Shown: positions 1 through 59,622 of the stretch, one piece after another
How positions within the stretch are numbered: the first letter of the stretch is position 1
How the letters are laid out: every line of letters begins with the position of its first letter
Source: a virus
Lineage: Duplodnaviria > Heunggongvirae > Uroviricota > Caudoviricetes
IMG/VR virus record: IMGVR_UViG_2875703104_000004
DNA length: 64,000 nt
Strand: one strand, 5' to 3'
Program-made: the position numbers and the translations under genes
Notes under the pieces: model-generated
The model's input: the letters and a program-made list of their open reading frames with translations, nothing else
Database searches by the model: none
What the model was told of the DNA's origin: nothing

Positions 1-1119
1 TCAAATAACCAACTTAACCCATTCCTGACCTCGAGTATCGTTATAGCGATCGGTGGTTGCCTGGACTTTATGTCCTAGTAATGTTTTTGTATCGATACCC
101 TGTGCACGGTACAGCCGTTCTGATAGAGAGCGTTGTTCATGAAATGTTGGCGAAGTTTTTCCTGCTGGTGGAATTATCCCAGCCAGATCCCGTGCTTTGG
201 CAAAGTAGTCGCTCAGGTTGTCTTTACTCATCGGCTTCGGTTGTTTCTGGTGCCGACTATGGATTAGATATGGACTTAATATTCTGTCTCGGCACCCATC
301 AATAACTTCTTTTAACGTTATCCCAATGGCATCACAGCGTAGTGTAAGCGGTAACGCCAGACGCATTCCGGTTTTTCCCTGGGTGATATGCAAGTGTTCG
401 TTCCACACATCTGAAAAACGCATGTGGCAAATGTCATCACGGCGCTGACCAGTAACAATCGCAAGAAGCATTGCGTTACGGATAAAGTGTTTTTCAGGCG
501 TTGCATTGTAAATTTTTTGCCAGTCTTCCATGGTGAGCCTGGCTCTGGTTACTTTAGGGATCGGTTTACGGGTAGCCTCCGGAGGATTCCATCCAGGAGG
601 AACTTCCCCTGCATGCTGTGCTTCTTTATAAATATCAACCCATAATCCACGATTTACTCTCGCTGTGCTGACCATGTCTTTATCCAGCCACTCATCCAGT
701 ATTAATGCAAAGTCTCTTACTTCCAGTTCTTTCAATGGGTGGTTTCCCAGACGGGAAACCAGGTATGCAGCCATTCGAGTTTTTTCTTTGTGAGTTGTAG
801 CTGCAATATCTCCATTTTTCAGTCGCGTGTCCTGTATTTTCAGATATCGATCAACCCATGCCTTTAATCTGATACCCCGACGTTTTGTTGCTGACGGACT
901 TTCATCAATTTTGCGCATGAAATATTCAGCTTCTGCTGCAGCTATTCGCTGATTGGCTGTGGAAGCGATTTTTTCTGCCTTACCTTTGTCTGTTCCGAGT
1001 CCGTGAAATTTTCCAGTCACAGGATTTTTATACTGGTAGTAAACTCTGCCAGTTCTGCGATCAAACTTTTCGTAAAGACCGGCTACGTCAGTGCTGTTTT
1101 TTCGTGGCCTCGGTGACAT
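1..1119 (-). CDS. int: Prophage integrase, lambda-Int-like tyrosine recombinase (372 aa); its stop codon is bases 1-3 of the window
   Basis: ORF-track ORF; C-terminal catalytic region with ...HEQRSLSERLY...LLGHK...DRY... resembles lambda Int by recall; followed by overlapping xis-like ORF. Confidence 0.9.
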   Translation of the reverse strand: MSPRPRKNSTDVAGLYEKFDRRTGRVYYQYKNPVTGKFHGLGTDKGKAEKIASTANQRIAAAEAEYFMRKIDESPSATKRRGIRLKAWVDRYLKIQDTRLKNGDIAATTHKEKTRMAAYLVSRLGNHPLKELEVRDFALILDEWLDKDMVSTARVNRGLWVDIYKEAQHAGEVPPGWNPPEATRKPIPKVTRARLTMEDWQKIYNATPEKHFIRNAMLLAIVTGQRRDDICHMRFSDVWNEHLHITQGKTGMRLALPLTLRCDAIGITLKEVIDGCRDRILSPYLIHSRHQKQPKPMSKDNLSDYFAKARDLAGIIPPAGKTSPTFHEQRSLSERLYRAQGIDTKTLLGHKVQATTDRYNDTRGQEWVKLVI

Positions 1120-1366
1120 GAGTTAAAATCTCCTTCAGTGCATCATCATCGCCAGTATGAATTTCCGGCGCAATTCCCGTTTCACCAGGCCCAACAAATA
1201 CTGCTCGGCGATCTATCAGCCAACGCCCACGAATTTTTTGTGGCCTTGGAACGATGTATCCTAGTTTTCCGTATTTCACCAGGGTAGTGTTTGTTATTGG
1301 GAGACTGAACCGTTTTGGTTTCCACTCGTCGAGCGTTATCAGGTACTGTTCGCTCATGGCTATCAC
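1088..1366 (-). CDS. xis: Excisionase-like small protein (Xis position, overlaps int start)
   Basis: 92-aa ORF overlapping the 5' end of int, the typical int-xis arrangement; assignment by position and size only. Confidence 0.55.
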   Translation of the reverse strand: MIAMSEQYLITLDEWKPKRFSLPITNTTLVKYGKLGYIVPRPQKIRGRWLIDRRAVFVGPGETGIAPEIHTGDDDALKEILTHVTEATKKQH

Positions 1367-1409
1367 TCCGGAACGCGCCAGTTGCAGAATATCAACGACA
1401 ACTGGCGAC

Positions 1410-1585
1410 GGTTGAACATTAAAAATCAGCCTGACTCGGGATCAGTTTTTGCCAGATAACTGAAACGTATTTTGCCTGGTAACGGGCGTCATCAAGTGCA
1501 TTATGGCGCTCACCTTCGAATGGAATAGCCGTTCTGGCATCGAAGTCTATGGCTTTCCCCAGCTCAACGATTGTGCGTACATCGC
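1410..1585. repeat. Displaced copy (about 176 bp, 1 mismatch) of the 3' end of the exonuclease gene; second copy at 1783-1958
   Basis: Near-identical direct repeat read in the sequence; the second copy encodes the C-terminus of the 863-aa ORF. Confidence 0.8.
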
Positions 1586-1789
1586 CACTCGCCAGCGTCT
1601 TCCAACTTTTTTGGGGAGAGGAAATATCATTCCGGCTTAGCGTATTTACTTAACGTACTCGGAGTTGGGACCGGTTCACTGAATTCCTCTTTTGCCCACT
1701 CAGTGAGCAGAATAAGTCTTGCCATGAGCGTCGTTCGCTAATCATGGTCGCCGCCACTATAGCTGGTGGGCAACGACCGGGGTTGAACA

Positions 1790-4381
1790 TTAAAAATCAG
1801 CCTGATTCGGGATCAGTTTTTGCCAGATAACTGAAACGTATTTTGCCTGGTAACGGGCGTCATCAAGTGCATTATGGCGCTCACCTTCGAATGGAATAGC
1901 CGTTCTGGCATCGAAGTCTATGGCTTTCCCCAGCTCAACGATTGTGCGTACATCGCGATCGTTGTAGTAACGCCACGGGCAGGGGATCCCCTGCCGTTCG
2001 TATGAACGGCGCAAAATCGTGTTGTCGAAGTTGGCTCCATTTCCCCAGACCTGAACAAAAAATTCACCGGAGTTTTCGTCGATAAATTCCCGCAATTGTA
2101 ACAGTGCATCATCTAACGGGATTTCATCGGTCATAATGGCAGATTGCGCTTCGCGTGATTGCTTAAGCCACCATTTAATGGTGTCCCGATCAATGACNCC
2201 GCCAGCAGTTTCCAGATCGATAGTCTTACTAAATTCCGGTCCCATATCTCCGGTTTGCGGATCGAAAAATATTGCACCTATTGAGATGATCGGGGCATCA
2301 GGATTTTTTCCCATGGTTTCAAGGTCGATCATTAGATGGTCACACGTCCTGCTGGTGGATGTGATTTCTTGATGACCGTTCACCTTAATTGAGTGATCTG
2401 CCGTCTCGCCAGTTTCATTATCGCTATCGTGATGCTGATTGCCGNCAGTGTTCTCCTTGTGTGGATGTTCAGCGCCTTCCATTTCCTCCGGATCATCTTC
2501 CTGAACTTCAACCTGATACTCTTCATCGAATGTTTCCTGGTATGTTGCGTCGCCCATCACCGCGCCACAATCAGGGCAGTTGCCGCCGCCGGTCTGACCG
2601 CAGGCGGTGCAGACTTTTTCCACTTCCTGTTGCGNNNNNNNNNNNNNNNNNNNNNCTTCAACCTGATACTCTTCATCGAATGTTTCCTGGTATGTTGCGT
2701 CGCCCATCACCGCGCCACAATCAGGGCAGTTGCCGCCGCCGGTCTGACCGCAGGCGGTGCAGACTTTTTCCACTTCCTGTTGCGCCACTGGTTCGGATTG
2801 TTTCGTTTCTGGCTCGTTTTGTAACGCATTTGGGCTGTTTTGTTCCGCTTTTTGGTCGTTCCGTTCCGATTCATGCTGGTTCTGGTTCACAGAATCGCGA
2901 GTCTGGATCCCTTTGACCCATTTCGGATCATTAGGGTCGCTAATCCCCTCAACAAATTCACCACGCGATACAGCAAGTAACTTATCGGCGTCAGGCTGGC
3001 TGATATTGGCTGCCTGCATAATTTTGTTTACTTCGTCAGCGGTGACTTTTACTTGGTTAGCGGAACTCACCTGCGACTGAGCATCCAGCGACTGCGCGTT
3101 CTGGCCATGTTCAGTTGTATCCGGTTCCATTGTTTCAGTTGTTGCCTGTTCACCTGCCATTGCGTCAGATGGTTGTGGTTTTTCTTCTTCTGTTTCACGC
3201 TCAGTAACCACCTCGCGGTTAATTTCTTCCAGGATATCTTTTTCCGGCGTATGCCGGGCAGCTGTGAGAGTTTCCTTGCTGGGGTTCTCGTGATCAGTTT
3301 CCGTCAAATAGGCGTTGATATACCCCTGAAGGCGTCCCGGGTAGTGATAAAATTCAGGGTGTGCGCTTCGGATAAGTGCAAAAATAGCGGCGCGGGAATA
3401 GTCCAGAATACCCGGGGTTGCACGAAGTGCTGCGGACCATTCTTTGAACGGACTTTCTTTGTTCAGGACTACTTCTTTTGCGCGACGATAAACGCTGCCC
3501 GGAATTTCATAAATATTAAAATCCATCGGAAGTGTGGCTGCTGCAATCTCCACATCCAGTGTGTCGAGGGTGTGTACTAAATTCGGATTGCGATCGGTTT
3601 TGTTCCCACCGCCAGCATTAGCACCGGAAGCCGTGCGGGTGATGCGTGAAACACGATTTCCTTTCATCCACTCTTTTGTCAGCAAACCCCGATCAGTGTA
3701 GTCAGCGTCTAGGTATGCTTCGAAAAAAGCAGTTATTAGTCCCAGGTCTGAATTACCAGGATTAGGGAAAACTTTGTCAGTGTCACGAACCAGTTTGTGG
3801 AGGTCGCGAATCTCCAGCGAGTCGAGCAGACTGGTTTTATGCGAAATAGCCAGGGCAGTAACAGCCGGTAGTTCTTCAGCCCGTGCAATGTGTAATGCCT
3901 GGAGTTCGTCGCGTGAAACGTGCGTTACTGGTTTTTCGCTGCCGTGTTGAGCAAGCCAACGAATGGGCAGTTCCTGACCGGAGACAGGCAGAAGCATGCT
4001 CTCCTCAATCTCAGTCATGGCTTCGCCGTTGATGTTGGTATTGTCAGTGCTGGCTGGTTTGTCCTGAACAGAGGGGGAAGGGCCGATAAATGTCATTGTG
4101 ATGCCATCTTTCCCGCCTTTTTCATAGCGGTTGCAGAATTCAGTATCAAACACGCCTTCTGGCGGAAGGTCGTCAACAACGGGCAAATTGACGCGGACGG
4201 GTTTTTTAAAGTCGTCTTCATCATAATCGTTGTCATCCATTGCGGTAATGCAGCGGGAGATTGCAACAGATAATTTTTTTGCTGTAGTCCAGTAAAAACC
4301 ACCTTTAATTCCTAGGCGTTTTCTTACTTTGTCATTTTTTGCTTCGCAATATAGTGCAAATTCTTCTTTATCAGTGCTCAT
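1790..4381 (-). CDS. RecE-family exonuclease: N-terminal region RecE-like, C-terminal DEDDh (DnaQ-like) 3'-5' exonuclease domain; interrupted by an N-run and carries single Ns
   Basis: 863-aa ORF; N-terminal stretch ([22 protein letters not shown]...) matches E. coli RecE as I recall it; C-terminus has DLETMG ... HNALDDARY motifs typical of DnaQ-like exonucleases. Confidence 0.8.
2506..2784. other. Assembly gap (21 N at 2635-2655) flanked by identical 129-bp copies (2506-2634 and 2656-2784) inside the exonuclease gene
   Basis: Seen directly; produces a duplicated 42-aa peptide block either side of the X run in the ORF translation. Confidence 0.85.
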
Positions 4382-4474
4382 TATTGGTAAACCTCATCAC
4401 AGATTTAAGGGTGAACAAATCTCTGCCATTGCTGACATATAAGAATGAAACTGGATATTTATTACGGTGCTGTT

Positions 4475-4666
4475 TTAAAATCCTGCCGGGATTTCGTTAT
4501 TATCCTGGTGAATAACTTTATCGACCGGATAACAGTTGCCTGGAATTTTCTGTTCGGTTGCTGCTGCCATACATTCCTGCATTGTTCTGTGAACACTGAC
4601 TGCAATATCAACTGACTCTCCGGAAACAAGAAAAACCGTCAGAATAAGTGCAAATACTGGATTCAT
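4475..4666 (-). CDS. Small hypothetical protein with hydrophobic N-terminus (63 aa)
   Basis: Internal start MNPVFALILTVFLVSG (signal-peptide-like) translationally coupled to the upstream ORF. Confidence 0.4.
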   Translation of the reverse strand: MNPVFALILTVFLVSGESVDIAVSVHRTMQECMAAATEQKIPGNCYPVDKVIHQDNNEIPAGF

Positions 4667-4851
4667 TGTGCACATCCTTTTGGCATCAGACGTAAACGGG
4701 CCAGCATTGAAACAATGCATACTTTATTTAATAACTCCCGTTCGTGTTTTCTTTTGTTAATGGCATCTTCAGTAAATACAGGATTACTGATAGTGACACC
4801 AATTTCAAAACAACCTTCAGACGTATTAACGTTTGGTAATAACGTTTTCAT
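4663..4851 (-). CDS. Small hypothetical prophage protein (62 aa)
   Basis: Internal ATG of ORF 4663-4956 preceded by GAGGG at suitable spacing; ATGA overlap with the next small ORF. Confidence 0.4.
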   Translation of the reverse strand: MKTLLPNVNTSEGCFEIGVTISNPVFTEDAINKRKHERELLNKVCIVSMLARLRLMPKGCAQ

Positions 4852-5120
4852 TATCGCGCCCTCAACAATGAGTTTTGTGATGCGGTGCCTGGTGCCTCCA
4901 GGTGACGTTAACCAGTTAACAATTAACGCCGGATACAGAGAATCCACCCATAACACTGTTTTTGGTTTTAACTGTTCCGCGTGCGCTTAGCCGCATTCAC
5001 CGCATCACAAAATTCACTTTAAAAAGGGCGGCAGAGCAGTCACGGAGTAAAACTGATACCGCCAAACGTCACCAGAAAATTGATAACAGAGGGCGTTGCA
5101 GTGGGGTTGTCACTTAAGCG

Positions 5121-5384
5121 TATGGTCAACCTGACAACCCGGTGTCCTCAACGGGGGAAGGAATAACCCCGCCATACTTACCGCCGCGCCATTTCGCGGA
5201 TTGCCACAACCGGAAGCGCACGGTCGACGAAAATTTAACGACAGGCTATCTATGGTCAACCTGACAACCCGGTGTCCTCAACGGGGGAAGGAATAACCCC
5301 GCCATACTTACCGCCGCGCCATTTCGCGGATTGCCACAACCGGAAGCGCACGGTCGACGAAAATTTAACGACAGGCTATCTATG
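5121..5384. repeat. Perfect tandem duplication of a 132-bp unit (5121-5252, 5253-5384)
   Basis: Seen directly; non-coding context; probably an assembly artefact. Confidence 0.8.
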
Positions 5385-5549
5385 AACCAGCTACCTCGCC
5401 GTGCGCTTTCGCGTTATGGTCTGACTTTTCAGGGAAATATCCTTTCAGTAAACTGTCAGTGCCGGATGCTCACCCGTGTCCGGCGCACGCACTCCACCTC
5501 ACCCGTGGAGAACTCCTTAATTACCAACCTTAGCTTCGTTGGTTATCTA

Positions 5550-5768
5550 TTAACGCGGGTATGTAATCATTCTGGCAATGCTTAATGCCGCTGCTTTTTC
5601 CAGCCTGGTGATATCCTGCTCCAGAGCGGACAGATTTTCAGCCTGCTTAGCTCTGGCTTCATTAGCCCATTTCAGATCCTGCGCTGCATTAATTTTCTGG
5701 CGCATCCACTCATAAAGTTCATCATCGGTATAGTCTGGCGCGATGATGACGGGTTCTCGTTTCTGCAT
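5550..5768 (-). CDS. Hypothetical prophage early-region protein (72 aa)
   Basis: ORF-track ORF in the same orientation as neighbouring early genes; no motif recognised. Confidence 0.4.
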   Translation of the reverse strand: MQKREPVIIAPDYTDDELYEWMRQKINAAQDLKWANEARAKQAENLSALEQDITRLEKAAALSIARMITYPR

Positions 5769-5794
5769 ACTGATTCCTCGCGGTGCTGTTTCGC

Positions 5795-5926
5795 TTATCA
5801 GCCGTTAGATTTTGCCGAACTGGAAAGCGCCTGTTTAAATTCGTTGAAGCTGTGAGCTTCTTCGCCTTCGGCAAGGCCTTCGAAGTATTCTTCGTAAGCC
5901 TTTTCCATGATTGTGTCAAAATCCAT
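5795..5926 (-). CDS. Small acidic hypothetical protein (43 aa; MDFDTIMEKAYEEYFEGLAEGEE...)
   Basis: My own translation; ATG lies 1 nt after the stop of the upstream 78-aa ORF; preferred over the overlapping basic 69-aa GTG-start ORF. Confidence 0.3.
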
Positions 5927-5927
5927 A

Positions 5928-6164
5928 TCACTCACCTGAGTTTCTTTCCAGCCAGCGACGGGCACCATTTTCGGTTTTAAACGTTTTGCTTTTTGTATAC
6001 GTCATTGCGGTGAAGGTGCCGTCCTGGTTTGGAAACACGCCGTACACCAGAGATTCGTTGTTGCCAAGATCGATAGTATCCATGCTGACCTCATTTCCCC
6101 TTAACGCCGGGGTAGCGGAACAAAAACCTGCTGCATAGTTATTAAAGTTGAACCCTGCCGTCAT
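5928..6164 (-). CDS. Hypothetical prophage protein (78 aa)
   Basis: ORF-track ORF; no motif recognised. Confidence 0.45.
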   Translation of the reverse strand: MTAGFNFNNYAAGFCSATPALRGNEVSMDTIDLGNNESLVYGVFPNQDGTFTAMTYTKSKTFKTENGARRWLERNSGE

Positions 6165-6375
6165 GTTCTTACGCCTCGGGCTGGCTACTTAACCCCTGAC
6201 CACTGCCTGGTAACTCGAAGTATTGCCCTGCATTCTGTAGGATGGGGTGAGGGAATGAATGAAGTTTAGAAAAACGAACTTTTCAGGTCAATGTTTTTTT
6301 ATCAAAACATTTTAAGCAGGCAGCTGTTAAGCCATCACCACGATGGCATACAGTTAATCAAATAGATGAGGTTGG

Positions 6376-7014
6376 TTAAATATCTTGTTGAATTTTAAAG
6401 CATACGCCCAATATGCAAGATAGATCATCCAGCATAATTGAAGGGTAGCGAGGATTCGTGGGGACTAAAAGAATATCCGGCCCTTCTATCTCCAGTTTAC
6501 GAATGACAGGTGTTGTGGTCCCTTTGGGTAAGGCAAGGACAATATTTCCTGGTTGTACGGTTCGATCGGGATCAACAAAAACTGTTGAACCATTTGGGAT
6601 GGAAACTCCCCCACCAGATGTTGACATACTGTCACTCTCTAGAACAACTGCAAAGGTATTGACCGGGATTTCTCCGACAAGCTGCACACAAGAGGTTATT
6701 GAGGAATTTTTCATATAATCACTCCAGCTTGCTGCCTGCTGAAGTGATAGTAGCGGAACCGTTTTTATCGGCGGTAAAGATAGATCAAGCGAATCACCTG
6801 TATTTAACTCTCCTCCATTAAGAAGCCAATTTTCGTTTACTTTCAATATTTTTGCCAGTGAACTTATGTAACGCGAGGACGGCGCTCCTCCACCGTTCAT
6901 CCATTGACTTACGGAGCCTTTTGATGCGCCAGTGCCATTGACAAGGTCTTTGCCTTTCAGGTTTAGCGCATGCATACGTTGGGTTATGCGTTCAGATATA
7001 GTTTGCTTGCTCAT
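6376..7014 (-). CDS. cI: CI-like prophage repressor (N-terminal HTH, C-terminal LexA/S24 peptidase-like domain)
   Basis: 212-aa ORF with HTH-like LKGKDLVNGTGASKGSVSQWMNG and a C-terminal Ser/Lys peptidase-like region; divergent from a cro-like gene. Confidence 0.8.
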   Translation of the reverse strand: MSKQTISERITQRMHALNLKGKDLVNGTGASKGSVSQWMNGGGAPSSRYISSLAKILKVNENWLLNGGELNTGDSLDLSLPPIKTVPLLSLQQAASWSDYMKNSSITSCVQLVGEIPVNTFAVVLESDSMSTSGGGVSIPNGSTVFVDPDRTVQPGNIVLALPKGTTTPVIRKLEIEGPDILLVPTNPRYPSIMLDDLSCILGVCFKIQQDI

Positions 7015-7788: not shown

Positions 7789-8115
7789 AACTCGTGAGTA
7801 AAAAGATTCGGTATCAGAAGAGGTGAGTATGGCTAACGCCTGGCTCAGATTATGGCATGACATGCCAAATGACCCTAAGTGGCGAACAATTGCCAGGGTG
7901 TCAGGGCAGCCAATTGCAACAGTGATGGCAGTGTATATCCACCTCCTGGTGNAACTCGTGAGTAAAAAGATTCGGTATCAGAAGAGGTGAGTATGGCTAA
8001 CGCCTGGCTCAGATTATGGCATGACATGCCAAATGACCCTAAGTGGCGAACAATTGCCAGGGTGTCAGGGCAGCCAATTGCAACAGTGATGGCAGTGTAT
8101 ATCCACCTCCTGGTG
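7789..8115. repeat. Tandem duplication of about 163 bp (7789-7951 and 7953-8115) joined by an N at 7952
   Basis: Seen directly; duplicates the RBS and first 41 codons of the next gene; likely a contig-join artefact. Confidence 0.8.
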
Positions 8116-9063
8116 AGCGCGTCACGAAATGTCACGCGAGGTCACATTGATGTCACGACAGAAGATTTGGCAAGTGCGCTCGACGTGACAGAAGAGGTAA
8201 TTGATTCAATTTTGCAGACGATGCAGGGGCGGGTACTTGATGGTGATTTAATCACTGGATGGGAAAAACGCCAGGTGCTGAAAGAGGACAACGGCAATAT
8301 TTCGCAAACCGCAAAATCTCCGGCAGAGCGCAAGAGGGCGCAGCGAGAGAGGGAAAGAAAGCGGGAACAAAATGGCGATTGTCACGGCGAGTCACGAAAT
8401 GTCACGCACATGTCACGACGAGTCACGACAGATAAAGATACAGATAAAGATACAGATCAAGAAGATCAAAACACTATGGTCCATGGCGTAAAAAACGCCA
8501 CGAACCAGGCAGGGGATGTTCAGACCGTCACTCCTGGCCAGCCCGCAGGCACGACACCGGAAGCCGATTCAGCGTATGCGCTGAAAGCCGATTCGGGCGC
8601 TGTGCAGCAGGTGATGACCGCAAGGCAGGAGCAATCACACCAACTTCAGCAGCCTGAAGCCGATTCCGCCATTCAGCGGGAAGCCGATCGGGTAGTCCCG
8701 GAAAACACCGGGCAGCCTGTGGGACGAGTGGATTATCCTGATGTGTTCGAACAGGTCTGGCGGGAATACCCGTTGCGTGCCGGGGCAAACCCGAAGAAAT
8801 CCGCTTTCAGTGCCTGGAAAGCCAGATTACGCGAGGGGGTGCCACCAGAGGCCATGCTGGATGGCGTGAGGCGTTACGCAAGATACCTTGCGGCTACCGG
8901 GAAAACGGGAACGGAATTTGTTCAGCGAGCGACGACGTTTTTTGGACCGGACCGGAATTTTGAAAACCCCTGGCTGCTCCCGGTAAGCGGCACGAACAAC
9001 CAGCGTTGTGTGAATCATATTTCTGAACCGGATAACGAAATTCCGCCGGGCTTCAGGGGGTAA
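7993..9063 (+). CDS. Putative prophage replication / replisome-organiser protein (356 aa)
   Basis: ATG at 7993 with GAGGTG upstream; conserved-looking N-terminus MANAWLRLWHDMPNDPKWRTIA (YdaU/DUF1376-like by recall); low-complexity acidic/basic middle. Confidence 0.6.
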   Translation: MANAWLRLWHDMPNDPKWRTIARVSGQPIATVMAVYIHLLVSASRNVTRGHIDVTTEDLASALDVTEEVIDSILQTMQGRVLDGDLITGWEKRQVLKEDNGNISQTAKSPAERKRAQRERERKREQNGDCHGESRNVTHMSRRVTTDKDTDKDTDQEDQNTMVHGVKNATNQAGDVQTVTPGQPAGTTPEADSAYALKADSGAVQQVMTARQEQSHQLQQPEADSAIQREADRVVPENTGQPVGRVDYPDVFEQVWREYPLRAGANPKKSAFSAWKARLREGVPPEAMLDGVRRYARYLAATGKTGTEFVQRATTFFGPDRNFENPWLLPVSGTNNQRCVNHISEPDNEIPPGFRG

Positions 9064-9562: not shown

Positions 9563-9846
9563 TTCGCATCAAAGGAGAGGAGCATGGAAATAAAACCAGA
9601 GGATGAGTTAAGCAATATCGTTTTATTTCCGGTAAAAGAGGATGACCCTCGTAATCAGGTTAATTTTCTTTATGAGCCATCGGAAAGACCATATTGTCAT
9701 CACGTTCGCATCAAAGGAGAGGAGCATGGAAATAAAACCAGAGGATGAGTTAAGCAATATCGTTTTATTTCCGGTAAAAGAGGATGACCCTCGTAATCAG
9801 GTTAATTTTCTTTATGAGCCATCGGAAAGACCATATTGTCATCACG
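9563..9846. repeat. Tandem duplication of a 142-bp unit (9563-9704, 9705-9846) covering the start of a small gene
   Basis: Seen directly; first copy yields a truncated ORF, second copy the full ORF. Confidence 0.8.
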
Positions 9847-13104: not shown

Positions 13105-13485
13105 ATGACTGAACGCATAGAATTTGTTTTGCCTTACCCGCCGACGGTGAATACCTACTGGCGACGTCATGGCAATACGTATTTCATCTCGGAGGCCGGA
13201 AAGCGTTATCGCCGTGATGTGGCGCTAATTGTTCGCCAGCAGCGGCTGAAATTAAACCTGTCCGGAAGGCTGGCGATAAAGGTGATTGCAGAGCCACCGG
13301 ATAAGCGTCGTCGCGACCTGGACAATATCCTGAAAGCACCGCTGGATGCGCTGACGCATGCGGGAGTGTTAATGGACGATGAGCAGTTTGATGAAATCAA
13401 TATCGTTCGTGGTCAGCCAGTATCTGGTGGACGTATGGGGGTGAAGATTTACCCCATAATGCATGAAGAGCAGGTCAAAAAATGA
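13105..13485 (+). CDS. rusA: RusA-family Holliday junction resolvase (126 aa)
   Basis: LPYPPTVNTYWRRHGNTYFISEAGKRYRRDV...RRRDLDNILKAPLDALTHAGVLMDDEQ parallels E. coli RusA, which also occurs at 33441-33803 in this window. Confidence 0.85.
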   Translation: MTERIEFVLPYPPTVNTYWRRHGNTYFISEAGKRYRRDVALIVRQQRLKLNLSGRLAIKVIAEPPDKRRRDLDNILKAPLDALTHAGVLMDDEQFDEINIVRGQPVSGGRMGVKIYPIMHEEQVKK

Positions 13486-14037
13486 AACTGGAAGATTTAC
13501 CGAAATACTACTCCCCAAAATCCCCTGGCCTGACCGATGCATCGGCCTCAACGTCAAAAGATGCGCTGAGTATCACTGATGTGATGGCCGCGCAGGGCAT
13601 GACACAGAATCGGGCTGNGAAAGCGTTATCGCCGTGATGTGGCGCTTATTGTTCGCCAGCAGCGGCTGAAATTAAGCCTGTCCGGAAGGCTGGCGATAAA
13701 GGTGATTGCAGAGCCACCGGATAAGCGTCGTCGCGACCTGGACAATATCCTGAAAGCACCGCTGGATGCGCTGACGCATGCGGGAGTGTTAATGGACGAT
13801 GAGCAGTTTGATGAAATCAATATCGTTCGTGGTCAGCCAGTATCTGGTGGACGTNTGGGGGTGAAGATTTACCCCATAATGCATNAAGAGCAGGTCAAAA
13901 AATGAAACTGGAAGATTTACCGAAATACTACTCCCCAAAATCCCCTGGCCTGACCGATGCATCGGCCTCAACGTCAAAAGATGCGCTGAGTATCACTGAT
14001 GTGATGGCCGCGCAGGGCATGACACAGAATCGGGCTG
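13199..14037. repeat. Tandem duplication of about 419 bp (13199-13617, 13619-14037) joined by an N at 13618
   Basis: Seen directly; second copy carries extra Ns; duplicates the rusA 3' end and Q 5' end; likely a join artefact. Confidence 0.85.
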
Positions 14038-14365
14038 AGATGGGNTTTTCTGCGTTCCTGGGGAAAATGGGCATCAGTATGAATGACAGGGCGCGGGCAA
14101 CAGAATTACTGGCAGATTATGCACTCAGTCGGTGCGATCGTGTGGCGGCGTTGAGAAAACTTCCGGCAGAAATAAAACCGGTAGTGATGCGCATTATGGC
14201 TTCGTACGCTTTTGAGGATTATGCCCGCAGCGCAGCGAGTAAAAAGCAGTGCCCTTGTTGCTATGGGGAAAAATTTATTGAAAGCGTAGTTTTTACAAAC
14301 AAGGTCCAGTATCCGGATGGTAAGCCGCCGGTATGGGCAAAGTGTACGAAAGGTGTGTATTCGTC
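13903..14365 (+). CDS. Q: Lambda-Q-like late antiterminator, 3' end cut off at the N at 14366 (an N-terminal copy also at 13483-13617)
   Basis: KYYSPKSPGLTD...LSITDVMAAQGMTQNRA...CPCCYG resembles lambda Q (FHSPKSP...DVMAAMGM...) by recall. Confidence 0.6.
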
Positions 14366-14366
14366 N
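14366..14366. other. Probable contig junction (single N) between the phage Q gene and a truncated chromosomal/island gene
   Basis: Coding frame of Q and of the opposing SitA-like gene both terminate at this N. Confidence 0.7.
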
Positions 14367-14917
14367 AGTTCCGTAATCTGCTTACGCAGGGGGGCAAGGG
14401 TTTGGGTAATCTTGGCTTTATAAGTATCGGCATTGCGTTGGTAGGTTTGTGCATTTGCCGGATCGTATTTTATCAACGCATCACGAATATTATCGACGTA
14501 AATCAGAGCATTATCTGGCGACATCCATGCATGGGGGTTAGGTTTGCCCTCATAGGGTCCTTCGGTGATCCCTACAGGCGTCACACCCGAAGAGACAATT
14601 ACTTCTGGAACCCCATTGAGATGCTGGTAAAAGCGTTGGAACCACAATTCCAGATTCATACCATTGGCGAGAATCAGTTGTGCCCCCTGCGCACGTTTAA
14701 TATCGCCAGGGGTAGGCTGATACTCATGAATTTCTGCACCAGGCTTGGTTATGGATGAGACTTCTGCAGCATCTCCCGCCACGTTTTTGGCCATATCCGC
14801 GATGATGGTAAATGTTGTAATGACCTTGAATTTTTCAGTTGCACTTGCCTGAAATGCGATCGAGCAGGTGAGTGCGAGGCCCCCCAAGAGCATGGTTACT
14901 TTTTTTATCGAGTGCAT
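14367..14917 (-). CDS. N-terminal 183 aa of a SitA/YfeA/MntC-family Mn/Fe ABC-transporter periplasmic binding protein (truncated at the junction)
   Basis: Signal peptide MHSIKKVTMLLGGLALTCSIAFQASA then TroA-like region EKFKVITTFTIIADMAK...EIHEYQPTPGDIKRA...NPHAWMSP. Confidence 0.7.
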
Positions 14918-20077: not shown

Positions 20078-21204
20078 TTACAACGCTACTTTACTCCATC
20101 CTTTACCTCGATCATCATGATAACGATCGGTTTGCTGTTGCGTTTTATGACCAAGTAGTTTTTGTGTATTTAAACCCTGTTCTTTATACAAACGTTCTGA
20201 TAAAGACCTTTGTTCATGAAATGTTGCGGGAGAACCTTCACCCCAGTTAATTCCTGCTAAATCCCTCGCTTTACTGAAATTCATCGTCAATGTATTGGCT
20301 TTAACCTGCGCGCCGCGTTCAGCCTGTGAGGTAGTACGAAAAAAATGTACAAGGTATGGGCTGACAGCATAGTCACGGCAGCGGGCTACTACATCGCGCA
20401 AACTCCATTTAATCGCATTGAGACGCAGGGAAAGCGGGATGGCGATTTTGCTCCCGGTTTTTTCCTGGATGACATGGAGATGATCATCCCAAATATCGCT
20501 AAATTTCATACGCGAGATATCACCTAACCTCTGGCCGGTAACCAGTGCTAACAGCATGGCATTCCCCATATAACGATGACTGGCATCAGCGATATCAAAG
20601 ATTTTTTGCCACTCTTCAAGACTTAACCGTTGTCGGGTAATTTTTCTTCTGGGCTGTTTGGTGGCTAATGCCGGGTTATAGCCAGGGGGACTTCTCCGTA
20701 GTGTTGCGCCTCTTTGAAAACATCAATCAGTACGGAACGAACTACTTGCGCCATTCTCGGCTGTCCGGCGGCGATATACTCGTCAAGCAACTGGGCTATA
20801 TCCCTGACATCAACGGCTGAAATTAACTTCAGTCCTGCTCGTTCCCTGAGCAAGGATACTGGTTTGGCTTTCTGTTTATAGGTGTTGAGCTTTATATCGC
20901 CACTTTTCAGTCTGTCTTCCTGGATTGCTTGATAGCGATCTAACCAGGTTGACGTTGTGATTGCTTTTCCTTTGCTGGTTGCGATCCTGTCACTGATAGC
21001 TAGAATCTGCCGGGTTCTTTGCTCAGCTAGGCGTGTATTGGCCTCAGTGGCAATAGCAATGGCTTCAGCTTCGTTTGTGCCCAAAGAATGAAACTTCCCG
21101 GTCACTGGATGCTTATATCGCCAATAAACTTTATTTACTTTTCTGCTATAGAGCGGATACAAGTTCGGGACTGAAACATTATTCTTACGTGGTCTGGCTG
21201 CCAT
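20078..21204 (-). pseudogene. int: Lambda-Int-like integrase split by a -1 frameshift in a C5 homopolymer (G run on the + strand at 20685-20689)
   Basis: N-terminal ORF 20665-21204 and C-terminal ORF 20078-20569 are co-linear with the integrase at 1-1119; adding one C restores ...GEVPPGYNPALATKQPRRKITRQRL... Confidence 0.8.
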
Positions 21205-25636: not shown

Positions 25637-26509
25637 GTGCCGGATGTGGCACAAAAGGAGCGGCGCGTGGCAGATCTCGACGATGGTTATACGCGCATTG
25701 CAAATGAGTTGCTGGAAGCTGTGATGCTGGCCGGATTAACACAGCACCAGTTTCTGGTCTTCCTGGCTGTCATGCGCAAAACATATGGCTTTAATAAAAG
25801 ACTGGATTGGGTGAGCAACGAGCAACTTTCCGAATTGACCGGGATATTGCCGCACAAGTGTTCTGCTGCAAAAAGCGTTCTGGTAAAGCGTGGGATTTTT
25901 ATTCAGAGCGGGCGGAATATCGGCATTAATAATGTGGTCAGTGAATGGTCAACATTACCCGAATCAGGTAAGAAAAATAAAGTTTACCTGAAAGAGGTAA
26001 ATTTACCTGAATCAGGTAAGAAAAGTTTACCCAAATCAGGTAAACACAAAAGACAAACTAACAAAAGACAATATAAAACCTTTTTCGTCCGAGAATTCTG
26101 ACGAATCCTCTGACCAGCCAGAAAACGATCTTCCTGTGGTGAAACCGGATGCTGCAATTCAGAGCGGCAGCAAGTGGGGGACAGCAGAAGACCTGATCGC
26201 CGCAGAGTGGATGTTTGACATGGTGAAGACCATCGCGCCATCAGCCAGAAAACCGAATTTGCAGGGTGGGCTAACGATATCCGCCTGATGCGTGAACGTG
26301 ACGGACGTAACCACCGCGACATGTGTGTACTGTTCCGCTGGGCATGCCAGGACAACTTTTGGTCTGGTAACGTGCTGAGCCCGGCCAAACTTCGCGACAA
26401 GTGGACCCAACTCGAAATCAACCGTAACAAACAACAGGCTGGCGTGACAGCCGGAAAACCAAAACTCGACCTGACAAACACTGACTGGATTTACGGGGTG
26501 GATTTATGA
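25637..26509 (+). pseudogene. O: Lambda O-like replication initiator, 5'-truncated by the IS nest and broken by two frameshifts at homopolymer runs (near 26060-26100 and near 26270)
   Basis: VADLDDGYTRIANELLEA...QFLVFLAVMRKTYGFNK and C-terminal ...LSPAKLRDKWTQLEINRNKQ...TDWIYGVDL resemble lambda O by recall; three frames needed to read through. Confidence 0.7.
25955..26043 (+). repeat. Four iteron-like repeats (TTTACCYGAATCAGGTAA-type) followed by an A-rich stretch: candidate ori-lambda-type origin inside O
   Basis: Seen directly; iterons embedded in the O gene are an established lambda feature. Confidence 0.6.
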
Positions 26510-27207
26510 AAAACATCGCCGCACAGATGGTTAACTTTGACCGTGAGCAGATGCGTCGGATCGCCAACAATATGCCGGAACAGTACGACGAAAAGCCGCA
26601 GGTACAACAGGTAGCGCAGATCATCAATGGTGTGTTCAGCCAGTTACTGGCAACTTTCCCGGCGAGCCTGGCTAACCGGGACCAGAACGAACTGAACGAA
26701 ATTCGCCGCCAGTGGGTGCTGGCTTTCCGGGAAAACGGGATCACCACAATGGAACAGGTTAACGCAGGAATGCGCGTAGCCCGTCGGCAGAATCGACCAT
26801 TCCTGCCATCACCCGGGCAGTTTGTTGCATGGTGCCGTGAAGAAGCATCCGTTATTGCCGGACTGCCAAACGCCAGCGAGCTGGTTGATATGGTTTACGA
26901 GTATTGCCGGAAGCGTGGCCTGTATCCGGATGCAGAGTCTTATCCGTGGAAATCAAACGCGCACTACTGGCTGGTTACTAGCCTGTACCAGAATATGCGG
27001 GCCAATGCGCTTACTGATACGGAATTACGGCGCAAGGCTGCCGATGAACTGACTTGTATGACCGCGCGAATTAACCGTGGTGAGGCGATACCTGAACCAG
27101 TAAAACAACTTCCTGTCATGGGCGGTAGACCTCTAAATCGTGTTCAGGCGCTGGCGAAGATCGCAGAAATCAAAGCTAAGTTCGGGCTGAAAGGAGTGAT
27201 GAAATAG
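26506..27207 (+). CDS. P: Lambda P replication protein (DnaB helicase loader), 233 aa
   Basis: MKNIAAQMVNFDREQMRRIANNMPEQYDEKPQVQQVAQIINGVF... near-identical to lambda P by recall. Confidence 0.9.
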   Translation: MKNIAAQMVNFDREQMRRIANNMPEQYDEKPQVQQVAQIINGVFSQLLATFPASLANRDQNELNEIRRQWVLAFRENGITTMEQVNAGMRVARRQNRPFLPSPGQFVAWCREEASVIAGLPNASELVDMVYEYCRKRGLYPDAESYPWKSNAHYWLVTSLYQNMRANALTDTELRRKAADELTCMTARINRGEAIPEPVKQLPVMGGRPLNRVQALAKIAEIKAKFGLKGVMK

Positions 27208-27456: not shown

Positions 27457-30400
27457 ATGACCACTGTGAATAAAAAGTTAAAAAAAACTGCATCTGGCGC
27501 GATTACATGGTCGGTAATTGTTACCCAGATATTATCTCCAGTTTCTCTTTCTTTGATCCCAGCAAACAGTTTTGCATCATCTGGTAATAAAGATGTTACG
27601 CAAACTTATGCCAGCGATGAGCATGCAAATAAAGTGGCCTCATTTGCAGCAAGTGCAGGTCAGAGCCTGGCGAATAATAATGCAAGTAGTTTTGCTGTAA
27701 ATACTTTATCAACTCAGGCGACAAAAGAGGTCGTCGACTGGTTGCAACAATATGGCAATGCGCGCATCAAGCTTAATGTCGATGATTCTTTTTCCTTGAA
27801 GGATTCATCATTCGACTTTTTATATCCATGGCTGGATACTCAGGATTATGTGTTATTCAGTCAGACATCACTACATCGTACTGATGACCGAAATCAGACC
27901 AATATTGGTTTGGGGATTCGTCATTTCACTCCTGATAACGCAATGTTGGGTGCGAATGTTTTTTATGATTACGATTTAAGTCGCAGTCACTCTCGTGCAG
28001 GTTTTGGGGTTGAGTACTGGAGGGATTATTTCAGGCTTGGTGTAAATACCTATTTTGGTCTATCTGACTGGAAGAACAGTCGGGATATTGATGATTATCT
28101 GGAAAGACCTGCAAATGGCTGGGATTTTTCTGCTGAAGGATGGCTACCTGCTTATCCGCAATTAGGGGCATCTATTCAGTTTGAAAAATATTATGGTAAA
28201 AATGTCGGGTTATTTGGAAGCGATAACCTTCAGGAAAACCCTTACGCAGTTACTGGGGGAATTTCTTATACACCAGTTCCTCTGATTAAGTTTTCTGCAC
28301 AGCATAAGCAAGGACAGAGCAACGTTCACGATACAACCTTCGGTGTTGAGTTTAATTATCGCCCGGGCGTTTCCCTGGCTGAACAGCTTAGCAGCGATAA
28401 TGTTGCAGTTATGCGAGAAGTCCAGAATCGGCGTTATGATTTTGTTGAACGAAATAACAACATTGTTCTGGAGTACAAGAAGAAGCATGCACTGAAAATC
28501 AGTTTGCCAGAGTCTGTTCAGGGGGAGGGGGAATCAATCATCCCTGTAACACTGACAATCAACAATGCTAGTGGTGGTATCAAGTCTGTACAGTGGAATG
28601 ATAGTGCATTCACTGCGGCTGGCGGCAAGATCAGTGGAAATGGCACATCATGGCAGATCACTTTACCGGCTTATAAAAGCGAAGGTGTAAATTCGTGGAA
28701 TGTTGGAGCCACAGTCCAGGATAACAGAGGCAATGTTTCCAACTATGCCGTTATGAATATCAGCGTTAATAATAGTGGTGTCTCGACAGCGGATTCATCT
28801 TTTACGCTGGATGGGGATTCGTCTCCGACGATCTCTGCTGATGGTCAATCCACTTATCCAATAGTATTAAGCCTGAAAGACAGTAACGGTAAGGCATTAA
28901 CCGGACTGGCTGATGACATTGAAATGTCTGTGGAATTTACTGCGGATAGCAATAGTGCTCGACAGCGTGAAACGGTAACTGCTCCGTCATTAGGCGCGGT
29001 AGAGGAAATCTCTGCTGGTGTATATCGCTCTGTTCTGGCTGCTGGTTCGCAGGCTGGGACGGTACGTGTAACTGCAAAAGTTCAGGGAAAAACATTTACT
29101 CTCAGTATTAAGCAAACAGCAGCAACAGAACCTGATTCTGAGGTCAGTGCTGTTTTAACCGCTGCACCAGCAGAACAGGTAGTTGGTTACAATATCAATC
29201 TACAACTGGCAGTGAAGGATTCACAAGGAAATGCAATCACTGGTGATAACACTCTGAGCTTTTATGCTCTTAACCAGGCAGAAGGAGTCGAGTTTGGGAC
29301 TGTAACGGAAAAAGACGGTGTCTATAGCGCGACAGTAACTTCAAAACGAGCTGGTAAGATTACTATCGGTGTTAAATCTGATAGTCATGATTTCTCAGGT
29401 GTTAAGAAAGAAATCACCTTTATTGAGGACCGGCAGCAGGTTACATTCTCTCAGTTTGAAGCCAGCCAAAATAATGCATTGGCTGATGGAAAACAGAGAA
29501 ATATGGTAACTGTAAGCCTTGCGGACCGTTTCGGCAATGTTGTTCCTGGTTATGCTGTCACATTGTCTTTACCAGCAGGGATAACTCAAGTTGGTGGTGA
29601 ACATGCTGTTTCAACTGACGAAAATGGTAATGCTATTTTTGCGTTAATAAGCTCCACTCCGGGGTCTTACGTGATTACAGCTCATGCTGGTTCTCAGATG
29701 TCTACTGAGTTAACAGTGACCTTTGCATCAAATATGACCGGAGCTTCACTGTCACTGACGCCTGAAAGCAGTAGTTTAATTTCCAATATTCCTGCTAATG
29801 GTAAGGATGCAGCGGTATTAGATGTGCAGCTGACAAATACGAATGCGTCGGTCAATGGGCAAAAGATTCAGCTCATCACCTCATCTGAAGGATTATCTGT
29901 ACCAACAAATATCGTGACTGATTCAACAGGGCATGTTTCTGTTCCGCTTACAACGGTGAAAGCTGGTGAGTACACGGTGACTGCACGGGTGACTGACGGT
30001 TCCCATAGCGTGGAATCTGGCAGCGTTAAGTTAACTTTTGTGCCCGATGTTGCTTCTGCAGAACTTACTATGAGTGTATCAAAACAGGAGATTGTGGCCG
30101 ATGGCAGTGAAAACGCAACAGTAAACATTCAGTTGGTTGATGCGAATAACAATGCGTTTACAGGTGAGGTGGATTTAACGATTACACCATCGACGGGAGC
30201 ATCATTGACCAGTAGTAATCTGCAACTGGATGCTCATGGACAGGCAACAACGCAGTTCACTGCATCGAAATCAGGCCAGTACACAATTCAGGCCGAGTAT
30301 GTTCTGGATGGGAAACGCATAACCGCAAGCCAGAATATTGATGCCGTGACGGATGTGAAGGGGGCTGTGTTGGAGATCACATCATCTGCATCTTCGGCTG

Positions 30401-31008
30401 TAGTGAGCGATACCAACAATCTGGTATTTACGTTACTGTTGAAAAGTAAGTCAGGCGAAGCATTAAGTGGTCGAGCATTGAATGTTAAGACATCTGGGCC
30501 GTCTAAATATGGTGCGTTGGTGGTTGATAAAACCACAGTAACGACTGATGAGAACGGTCAGGCTACGGTAAGCGTACATGGTCGAACGGTTGGTTCGTAT
30601 AAATTAACGGCGACCTTAAACGAACTTGGCAGTGATGTTAGCGCGGTGAAATCATTCTCCCTGTACGCTGATGACGCAAATGGAGTATTGACTCTAACAA
30701 AAGATCCTGGTTATGAGACAAACGATGGCTCTCCAGTAGGTATTTATGCTCGATTTGTCGATCATTTTGGAAACCCATTATCTGGTACGGTTGAGTTTTC
30801 TGCTGGTAGTGAAGATAGTCCAGACTCTCAACGGGTCAAAATGGAGCCTGCTACAGTAACGTTACACTGGACAGGTAATGCAGCTTCGGAATTCAGCACC
30901 TATGAAAGTGGTTATCACTGGATTAAGGCCAAAATAACGAATAGCAAAAATACATATGAGAAAACAATAAGGACTTATGTTGTAAAACTACCTGAAAAGG
31001 ATAGTTAA
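27457..31008 (+). CDS. Inverse autotransporter (intimin/invasin-family) outer-membrane adhesin with repeated Ig-like (Big) domains, 1183 aa
   Basis: Signal peptide, N-terminal beta-barrel-like region (YPWLDTQDYVLFSQTSLHRTDDRNQTNIGLGIRHF...) then repeated about 100-aa segments; AT-rich gene. Confidence 0.75.
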   Translation: MTTVNKKLKKTASGAITWSVIVTQILSPVSLSLIPANSFASSGNKDVTQTYASDEHANKVASFAASAGQSLANNNASSFAVNTLSTQATKEVVDWLQQYGNARIKLNVDDSFSLKDSSFDFLYPWLDTQDYVLFSQTSLHRTDDRNQTNIGLGIRHFTPDNAMLGANVFYDYDLSRSHSRAGFGVEYWRDYFRLGVNTYFGLSDWKNSRDIDDYLERPANGWDFSAEGWLPAYPQLGASIQFEKYYGKNVGLFGSDNLQENPYAVTGGISYTPVPLIKFSAQHKQGQSNVHDTTFGVEFNYRPGVSLAEQLSSDNVAVMREVQNRRYDFVERNNNIVLEYKKKHALKISLPESVQGEGESIIPVTLTINNASGGIKSVQWNDSAFTAAGGKISGNGTSWQITLPAYKSEGVNSWNVGATVQDNRGNVSNYAVMNISVNNSGVSTADSSFTLDGDSSPTISADGQSTYPIVLSLKDSNGKALTGLADDIEMSVEFTADSNSARQRETVTAPSLGAVEEISAGVYRSVLAAGSQAGTVRVTAKVQGKTFTLSIKQTAATEPDSEVSAVLTAAPAEQVVGYNINLQLAVKDSQGNAITGDNTLSFYALNQAEGVEFGTVTEKDGVYSATVTSKRAGKITIGVKSDSHDFSGVKKEITFIEDRQQVTFSQFEASQNNALADGKQRNMVTVSLADRFGNVVPGYAVTLSLPAGITQVGGEHAVSTDENGNAIFALISSTPGSYVITAHAGSQMSTELTVTFASNMTGASLSLTPESSSLISNIPANGKDAAVLDVQLTNTNASVNGQKIQLITSSEGLSVPTNIVTDSTGHVSVPLTTVKAGEYTVTARVTDGSHSVESGSVKLTFVPDVASAELTMSVSKQEIVADGSENATVNIQLVDANNNAFTGEVDLTITPSTGASLTSSNLQLDAHGQATTQFTASKSGQYTIQAEYVLDGKRITASQNIDAVTDVKGAVLEITSSASSAVVSDTNNLVFTLLLKSKSGEALSGRALNVKTSGPSKYGALVVDKTTVTTDENGQATVSVHGRTVGSYKLTATLNELGSDVSAVKSFSLYADDANGVLTLTKDPGYETNDGSPVGIYARFVDHFGNPLSGTVEFSAGSEDSPDSQRVKMEPATVTLHWTGNAASEFSTYESGYHWIKAKITNSKNTYEKTIRTYVVKLPEKDS

Positions 31009-37671: not shown

Positions 37672-38220
37672 ATGAAGGTTAATAAAAAGAGGCTTGCCGA
37701 AATTTTCAACGTGGACCCGCGGACGATTGAACGCTGGCAGTCTCAGGGACTCCCTTGCGCCTCCAAAGGTAGTAAGGGCATTGAATCTGTATTTGATACT
37801 GCCATGGCAATTCAGTGGTATGCGCAGAGGGAAACTGATATCGAAAACGAAAAGCTCCGCAAAGAACTGGACGATTTGCGTGCGGCAGCGGAGTCAGATT
37901 TACAACCCGGCACCATTGACTATGAACGCTACCGGCTCACAAAAGCGCAGGCAGATGCGCAGGAACTGAAAAATGCCCGTGAAGACGGAGTAGTGCTGGA
38001 AACTGAACTGTTTACCTTCATTCTGCAACGTGTGGCACAGGAGATTTCGGGGATACTTGTGCGTGTGCCGTTGACATTACAGCGTAAATATCCGGACATT
38101 TCACCATCACACCTTGATGTGGTGAAAACTGAAATCGCGAAAGCCTCCAATGTTGCAGCTAAGGCCGGTGAAAACGTGGGCGGGTGGATCGATGATTTCA
38201 GACGCGCAGAAGGCAGCTAA
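37672..38220 (+). CDS. nu1: Terminase small subunit (Nu1-like), 182 aa
   Basis: Winged-HTH N-terminus ...[12 protein letters not shown]...; conserved ...[18 protein letters not shown]...[27 protein letters not shown]... as in lambda Nu1 (recall). Confidence 0.85.
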
Positions 38221-58608: not shown

Positions 58609-58908
58609 GTGTGAAATGACGGTAAACGACGCACTTGTGCCGGCACATAATAGCAAGCACCATAATAGATCAGATTCGATTCTTGCTGTAAGTGATAATT
58701 ATTCTCGTTTTCGGGTCCTTTCCGTCGATCCAACAGGTTACGGGGCGGCGACCTCGCGGTGTGAAATGACGGTAAACGACGCACTTGTGCCGGCACATAA
58801 TAGCAAGCACCATAATAGATCAGATTCGATTCTTGCTGTAAGTGATAATTATTCTCGTTTTCGGGTCCTTTCCGTCGATCCAACAGGTTACGGGGCGGCG
58901 ACCTCGCG
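58609..58908. repeat. Two tandem copies of a 150-bp cos-proximal unit (58609-58758, 58759-58908); one further copy at about 37362-37500
   Basis: Seen directly; each unit ends in the cosN sequence. Confidence 0.8.
58893..58904 (+). promoter_or_regulatory. cos: cosN (GGGCGGCGACCT) followed by cosB-like CGCGGGTTTTCGCTATTTATGAAAATTTT; cos site 2
   Basis: Exact match to the lambda left-end sequence by recall; 181 bp upstream of the second Nu1-like gene. Confidence 0.75.
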
Positions 58909-59073: not shown

Positions 59074-59622
59074 ATGAACGTCAATAAGAAAAAACTGGCC
59101 GATATTTTTGGCGTTGATGTCAGGACCATCACCGCCTGGCAGAGTCAGGGGTTACCACTAGTTTCTGGTGGAGGGAAAGGGACTGAATCAGTTTTTGATA
59201 CAACTGCTGCCATTCAGTGGTATGCGCAGAGGGAAGCTGATATTAAAAACGAAAAACTCCGTAAAGAGATCGAGGATTTGAGGGCTGCCAGCGAATCAGA
59301 CCTTCAGCCCGGCACCATTGATTACGAACGTTACCGACTGACGAAGGCACAGGCCGATGCACAGGAGCTGAAAAATGCTCGTGAGGAAGGCCTTGTCCTC
59401 GAGACGGAGTTATTTACCTACATCTTTCAGCGAGTGGCACAGAATATATCAGGGATCCTTGTCCGTGTCCCTCAGACACTGCAGCGTAAATACCCTGATA
59501 TATCACCCGTACATCTTGATGCTGTGAAAACTGAAATCGCGAAAGCATCCGATGTGGCTTCTGAAGCCGGTGAGAATGTGCGCAGGTGGATTGATGATTT
59601 CAGACGAACTGAGGGCGGCTAA
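59074..59622 (+). CDS. nu1: Terminase small subunit (Nu1-like), second divergent copy (182 aa)
   Basis: Same length as 37672-38220 with many substitutions ([36 protein letters not shown]...). Confidence 0.85.

Follow-up and report, generated by a model that had tools for sequence, protein, structure and literature searches.

A prophage exonuclease gene with a RecE-type N-terminal region and a predicted 3'-5' (DEDDh) nuclease domain, and the assembly of its locus

Does a prophage gene that resembles recE over most of its length, carries a different nuclease domain and lies without recT encode a recombination exonuclease, or an enzyme of another kind? The question is raised by a gene near one end of the 64,000-nucleotide (nt) stretch of viral DNA analyzed here (IMG/VR virus record IMGVR_UViG_2875703104_000004; the whole stretch is termed the window). 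The open reading frame (ORF) is on the minus strand and is written as 863 codons, including ambiguous (X) positions. An earlier note on this DNA described the product as a RecE-like exonuclease with a DnaQ-type C-terminal domain, a displaced copy of the gene's own 3' end and no RecT partner. We find that the gene is intact and that the protein, with a real length of 813 amino acids (aa), is modular. Sequence comparison shows that, where RecE has its PD-(D/E)XK domain, this protein ends in an exonuclease domain of the DEDDh type (DnaQ-fold, Rv2179c/DexA-like). The role that best explains these features, and which we consider probable, is that of a standalone DexA-like 3'-5' nuclease.

The ORF contains the RecE-like N-terminus and the DEDDh motifs (MIDLETMG and HNALDDARY) that had been noted. 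Pfam families identified in the 813-aa protein are PF06630 (Exonuc_VIII; aa 57-189, E = 1.5e-35) and PF16473 (aa 632-803, E = 1.2e-67), whereas RecE of Escherichia coli K-12 matches PF06630 and PF12684 (PDDEXK, aa 615-850). In BLASTP, aa 58-615 align with residues 50-591 of K-12 RecE at 59% identity, including a C-x2-C-x7-C-x2-C motif, and there is no alignment to K-12 RecE beyond aa 615. PF12684 has no match in the 813-aa protein, and the RecE structure 3H4R was not retrieved by a sequence search of the PDB. This structure is the only solved piece of RecE and comprises residues 605-866, exactly the part that is missing here. The NCBIfam equivalog for exonuclease VIII (NF007259) gives 944.4 bits, which is below its cut-off of 1269, and only profile positions 1-602 of 877 are covered. 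Thus, the alignment limits the likeness to RecE to the N-terminal region, and the domain search bears out the proposal that the C-terminus is of the DEDDh/DnaQ type and not of the PD-(D/E)XK type. Because the catalytic domain is DEDDh instead of PD-(D/E)XK, the expected polarity of degradation is 3'-5'.

DEDDh enzymes are Mg-dependent 3'-5' exonucleases, and this chemistry is predicted for the C-terminal domain. The PF16473 match scores 227.4 bits (gathering score 27) and extends over profile positions 2-177 of 177. The catalytic residues D636, E638, D736, H786 and D791 align with D7, E9, D119, H186 and D191 of phage T4 DexA. This D-x-E ... D ... H-x4-D pentad is invariant when the domain is aligned with DexA and five homologues; among 76 homologues from other species (42-100% identity), the catalytic positions are kept in 74 or more. 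T4 DexA (8KEL) is also the closest sequence in the PDB (1.8e-6) and the top Foldseek match (2e-8) of an AlphaFold2 model of aa 630-810, for which the predicted local distance difference test score (pLDDT) is ~90. RNase T, Orn (oligoribonuclease), REXO2 and Cap18 occupy the next ranks, with a Foldseek probability of 1.00 for DexA, RNase T, Orn and REXO2. The ratio of nonsynonymous to synonymous substitution rates between two alleles of the 3' end is 0.56, a value based on 36 differences (too few to inform), and conservation across genera was used instead.

The gene as written is longer than the real one. A run of 21 N at 2635-2655 lies inside the ORF and is flanked by exact 129-nt copies of a sequence that occurs once in the reference. 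The overlap adds 50 spurious residues and doubles a four-cysteine zinc ribbon. These extra residues are in all likelihood an unmerged contig overlap at the N-run, judging from the references, in which the overlap is absent. The real protein is identical to WP_000102136.1, annotated as "exonuclease". The earlier note had correctly attributed part of this region to assembly noise on account of the N-run and its duplicated flanks; the 863-codon ORF that it reported is present as written, with an inflated length.

The displaced copy of the 3' end belongs to a 176-nt direct repeat, the second copy of which is at 1781-1956; the two are 99% identical. Copy 1 exactly matches positions 4410-4585 of a reference locus (L001), where this sequence is contiguous with the integrase (int) and excisionase (xis) genes and where the reference gene simply continues. 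The copies differ at a single base (1435/1806, C or T). Copy 1 is exactly the allele of the potC-type prophage and copy 2 exactly that of the ompW type; the difference results in S809N, and the last 56 codons of the window ORF represent the ompW-type allele. The spacer between the copies is foreign. Together with base 1585, it provides the first 142 nt of the excisionase gene of the ompW-site prophage (to 1726). After 1726 the sequence is xis-exonuclease intergenic DNA of the ompW-site prophage, which runs past the spacer to 1789. The spacer is 99.6% identical to the xis/exonuclease junction of the ompW-site prophage in 1723 genomes. In the best-matching complete genomes the collinear locus measures 5749 bp, as compared with 6400 bp in the window, and the excess of 651 bp is composed of three local duplications (371 + 150 + 130 bp). 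The distance from xis to the exonuclease gene in reference genomes is 61 bp. Up to seven copies of the gene's 3' end are present per genome, and very many of its database records are "partial" proteins cut at a contig end. The 3' end is thus known to break assemblies, and in short-read data it can be expected to be surrounded by duplications and chimeric joins.

By these comparisons, the displaced copy and the spacer are most probably two concatenated contig ends from two related prophages that share the 3' end of the gene. The copy reported by the earlier note is present, but it does not stand in place of recT, as had been suggested; it joins contigs of two prophages. Were the repeat and spacer instead a real partial tandem duplication that arose when the potC-site and ompW-site prophages recombined unequally, the two copies would be expected to carry the alleles of two prophage types, as they do. 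Prophages of this group are also highly mosaic, as seen in Escherichia albertii, where the C-terminus is 99% and the N-terminus 56% identical. Nevertheless, a real duplication is very improbable. No match spans the junction 1585|1586 in any of 5426 complete E. coli genomes, and 655 complete E. coli genomes carry the 6.4-kb stretch collinearly and without the repeat junction. Moreover, the same window contains nine families of exact short-range duplications of 116-300 nt, several of them next to N, and past ~14.4 kb it breaks up into a mosaic whose pieces are unrelated.

The absence of an annealase partner is confirmed. Between xis and the repressor gene there is no ORF of more than 100 aa except the exonuclease gene, and tblastn found no match to RecT, Bet, Erf, lambda Exo or the RecE nuclease domain in the whole window. 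Correction of the sequence reveals no recT-like gene. In the 46-kb reference prophage no annealase is annotated, only RusA. The comparison was extended to 80 loci from other species (17 fusions to the RecE N-terminal region and 63 standalone domains), using RecT, Bet and Erf as tblastn seeds. RecT or Bet is within 7 kb in 0 of the 80, and none of the 17 fusions has RecT, Bet or Erf within this distance. An Erf-type gene is just upstream in five of the 80 loci, all five of them standalone homologues. A lambda-type integrase is present in 27, mostly a few hundred bases downstream of the gene. Because other loci, the reference prophage and other species are alike, we infer that the lack of a partner characterizes the family rather than this window. 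In contrast, every sampled recE of the K-12 type overlaps recT. A lambdoid Rec module has its nuclease contiguous with a single-strand annealing protein in the early-left operon, with or without an anti-RecBCD function, and no such pair is present here.

The architecture is no rarity: it predominates in E. coli, and entries for it already exist in Pfam, NCBI and PHROGs. DNA encoding the DEDDh domain was identified in 4069 of the 5426 complete E. coli genomes, or about 75%, at 8111 places, and K-12-type recE (the nuclease domain) in 1736. The identical 813-aa protein occurs on at least 1000 contigs under various names, among them plain "exonuclease" and, incorrectly, "5'-3' specific dsDNA exonuclease". 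The domain has homologues in 1623 phage records, all T-even dexA genes among them. The label "exodeoxyribonuclease VIII, 5'-3' dsDNA exonuclease" is often used; it is wrong for the catalytic domain and is no argument for the presence of RecET recombination.

The N-terminal region merits separate consideration. AlphaFold2 predicts with confidence a folded module of aa 1-378 (pLDDT 89 when modelled alone), followed by long acidic disordered linkers, a small zinc ribbon (C541, C544, C552 and C555), a further disordered linker and then the nuclease domain. The N-terminal domain of RecE is described in a review as being of no known function, the nuclease domain alone being genetically sufficient (PMC11611040). 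A search with the full-length protein filled up with E. coli sequences nearly identical to it and showed no diversity, so the N-terminus was searched against 50%-identity representatives. The result was a narrow family: of 1.84 billion clusters at this identity level, 244 have a representative in it. The 84 representatives of at least 450 aa include 22 with a PD-(D/E)XK domain, 15 with a DEDDh domain and 47 with neither, although some of these 47 may be cut at contig ends. In the 47, Pfam searches detected PF06630 and, beyond it, just one RecT fusion and one weak PDDEXK match. Thus, as indicated by the family's sequences, the N-terminal region behaves as an independent module that is paired with different nucleases or with none. 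The form without a nuclease matches the "RecE-2" proteins of PMC12315714. The search of representatives also turned up a 703-aa protein (P0242), not encoded in the window, that runs in frame from the RecE N-terminal region into RecT (PF03837, 1e-42) and has no nuclease domain; a deletion within a recET locus may have produced it.

A broader and distinctly tentative idea is that the RecE N-terminal region is a swappable module of orphan fold that is used with nucleases of opposite polarity or with none, and that the role of the DEDDh form is independent of annealing. This role may be the blunting or trimming of 3' ends for use of RecBCD by lambdoid phages that lack a Rec module. It may also be DexA-like scavenging of host DNA, or the exclusion of other phages. 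If the idea is true, the role of the DEDDh form could also explain the N-terminal two thirds of RecE.

The locus is the left arm of a lambdoid prophage, encoded on the minus strand (window positions 1-7014; Table 1). The genes are in the order repressor, DUF1391, ydfB, ydfC, DicF, dicB, DUF1482, exonuclease, xis and int, and the DicF gene and the exonuclease gene are in one early-left (dicB) operon. The exonuclease region is, with high probability, the int-proximal end of an early-left operon of the dicB type from an E. coli lambdoid prophage. The window integrase is 100% identical to WP_000074984.1 in NZ_CP054214, and the longest excisionase ORF extends to 1366, beyond the start assigned by PGAP. 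The same order int-xis-exonuclease-DUF1482-dicB was identified at E. coli loci at the ompW, tRNA-Ser/mtfA and rspB sites. A promoter and terminator scan of the reference locus gave counts equal to those in shuffled sequence.

Table 1. Features of the exonuclease locus and its neighbourhood (window coordinates).
Feature	Position	Strand	Remarks
Integrase (lambda-type, potC/potB-site prophage), 372 aa	1-1119	-	Pfam Arm-DNA-bind_1 and Phage_integrase
Excisionase, potC-type prophage	1088-1357	-	PGAP start; Pfam Exc 7.8e-5; annotated WP_000003742.1
Copy 1 of the 176-nt repeat, potC-type	1410-1585	-	Last 167 nt of the exonuclease gene and 9 nt downstream
Foreign spacer, 195 bp	1586-1780	-	ompW-site prophage xis-exonuclease junction
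Exonuclease ORF as written, 863 codons including X	1790-4381	-	Real gene encodes 813 aa
Predicted DEDDh 3'-5' exonuclease domain, aa 632-803	1823-2338	-	PF16473 1.2e-67
Probable unmerged contig overlap, exact 129-nt copies flanking 21 N	2506-2784	-	One copy in the reference
Folded N-terminal RecE-type module, aa 1-378	3248-4381	-	
DUF1482 (ydfD-like) gene	4475-4666	-	PGAP annotation of identical reference sequence, offset-transferred
dicB	4663-4851	-	PGAP annotation of identical reference sequence, offset-transferred
DicF small RNA gene	5026-5077	-	Rfam RF00039, 76.7 bits, E = 4.5e-16
Repressor, S24-peptidase type	6376-7014	-	

The K-12 Qin prophage, with the order dicB-ydfD-ydfE-intQ, has a gene in the same slot. 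The shared slot raised the suspicion that the pseudogene ydfE is a remnant of the exonuclease gene; this was ruled out, as BLASTP detected no similarity between them. In K-12 Qin (L090 5079-5999) the slot between ydfD and int is occupied by ydfE, which is unrelated to the RecE-type module. In some E. coli proteins, P0077 for example, a ydfE-like N-terminus is joined to the same DEDDh C-terminus. Because such ydfE-like/DEDDh chimeras exist, the DEDDh domain has recombined with more than one N-terminal partner.

As to function, the C-terminal domain would remove nucleotides from 3' ends by two-metal catalysis, with D636, E638, D736 and D791 binding Mg2+ and H786 serving as the general base. The RecE-type N-terminal module may bring the nuclease to a partner or substrate that it also serves in RecE, and so contribute targeting or scaffolding. 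The protein would act as a standalone DexA-like nuclease on DNA 3' ends or oligonucleotides, with expression from the early-left operon in lytic growth, and recombination of the phage would be left to RecBCD/RecA of the host. A nuclease that works alone is suggested because a 3'-5' activity consumes the 3' tails on which an annealase acts instead of generating them. Several points weigh against this reading of the locus. Polarity, the preference for DNA or RNA and the role are all drawn from homology, and the Pfam family PF16473 is named after an exoribonuclease. The N-terminal module is without a structural or functional analogue, and "targeting" is our guess. The annealase scan in other species used three seeds, so annealases of the Rad52/Sak type could have been missed. 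The verdict on the repeat and the N-run comes from comparison with other genomes rather than from reads of the source strain.

Three other functions deserve consideration. Since DexA is the closest solved structure to the C-terminal domain, the protein could be a nuclease of the DexA/EcD "HREX" type, directed against superinfecting phages, that degrades modified T-even DNA entering the lysogen. EcD, a DexA homologue from E. coli, is reported to be protective against T4 (PMC12153337), and the gene described here is widespread in prophages. We regard this function as unlikely. Identity with EcD is ruled out by the cloning primers for that protein, which encode MIDTET...TIPETYD (PMC12153337 supplement); EcD is thus a different protein. 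The domain also fails to qualify by the HREX criteria of the same study. W152 and D169 (or E) of DexA, which recognize 5-hydroxymethylcytosine, are not kept in the 813-aa protein and align with Y756 and A770 (the loop alignment is uncertain), and the tetramer residue D90, the loss of which is a further criterion, is retained as D708. PADLOC returned nothing for the full-length protein; the standalone homologues drew a generic, weak DEDDh match and no other. Expression in the lysogen would not be expected from a repressed early-left operon.

It is improbable that the protein is a true recombination exonuclease, equivalent to RecE, with its annealase encoded elsewhere or replaced by host functions. 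About 560 residues are common to RecE, some lambdoid Rec modules contain DnaQ-type nucleases, for example that of epsilon34 (PMC12315714; Genome Res 2025), and the five standalone homologues mentioned above are just downstream of an Erf-type gene. However, 3' tails are exposed by degradation in the direction opposite to the one that the fold predicts, and annealases are lacking in the window, the reference prophage and the 17 fusion loci. PMC12315714 also reports sporadic DnaQ-type nucleases near int and explicitly does not count these as members of Rec modules. We give a similarly low probability to an RNA-directed 3'-5' exoribonuclease that, like Rv2179c, trims phage or host transcripts or oligoribonucleotides, possibly products of the dicB/DicF operon. 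The name of the Pfam family, the close structural neighbours RNase T, Orn and REXO2, and the presence of DicF in the same operon are in keeping with such an activity, but sequence and structure agree in placing a DNA exonuclease, DexA, closest. Sugar specificity is not readable from sequence, and nothing ties the protein to DicF processing. A standalone DexA-like nuclease thus remains our preferred interpretation.

Other features of the window bear on how its sequence should be used. ORF and repeat calls that span its duplications are suspect because of the nine families of exact copies. Examples are at 7789-8115, 9563-9846, 13199-13918, 41360-41591, 58609-58908 and 62762-62993, some with copies one N apart, and the replication-gene ORFs 7823-7990 and 7987-9063 start with the same duplicated sequence. 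Beside DicF there is an exact 130-nt tandem duplication (5121-5380) that is missing from complete genomes and appears to be another unmerged overlap. After the antiterminator Q gene the window is no longer one prophage and looks like a chain of small contigs (~14260-37000). Its contents include a znuA fragment (14261-14917), transposases of the IS110 and rve types, a second integrase, lambda P (26506-27207) and an intimin/invasin-like inverse autotransporter of 1183 aa (27457-31008). The terminase region is present in two copies (37672-40120 and 59074-61522). Also encoded is a candidate anti-phage pair (17435-19809, plus strand), consisting of a 505-aa PtuA-like AAA ATPase (PADLOC PDLC00282 4e-239; also PDC-M01A) and a 285-aa PDC-M01B protein (1e-114). 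The pair adjoins a split lambda-type integrase (20078-21204, minus strand).

Chi octamers (GCTGGTGG) are present on the plus strand at 1762, in the ompW-type intergenic part of the foreign spacer, and at 2351, in the exonuclease gene. The 64-kb window contains eight Chi sites on the plus strand and three on the minus strand, several of them in duplicated or mosaic sequence. This density does not exceed what we take to be the average for E. coli, and the window does not represent a single phage. The count was prompted by the idea, put forward in PMC12315714, that phages without a Rec module have many Chi sites.

In comparison with known systems, the gene is of the same class and location as the int-proximal DnaQ-type nucleases and "RecE-2" proteins of PMC12315714, in the consulted passages of which the fusion of the RecE N-terminal region to a DnaQ-type domain and its prevalence are not described. 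The Rv2179c-like family (PF16473) is matched here over the full length of its profile; its founder is a small standalone mycobacterial RNase. T4 DexA (8KEL/8KEN) shares ~27% identity and the same five catalytic residues, but it is a standalone protein of 227 aa from a virulent phage and has extra loops, whereas the 813-aa protein has an N-terminal extension of 630 aa. Standalone prophage homologues of 180-190 aa (P0056, P0081, P0119 and gene 42 of Salmonella phage 118970_sal3) are 57-87% identical to the C-terminal domain and occupy the same slot just upstream of xis/int, but without the RecE-type N-terminal module. With RecE of the K-12 Rac prophage, the protein shares the N-terminal region, the four-cysteine motif, acidic linkers and PF06630, and both are encoded by large genes on the int side of the early-left operon of a lambdoid prophage. 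The two differ in that Rac RecE combines a PD-(D/E)XK domain (PF12684) with recT, whereas the protein described here has a DEDDh domain (PF16473) and no overlapping recT; its expected polarity is 3'-5', as opposed to 5'-3' in RecE.

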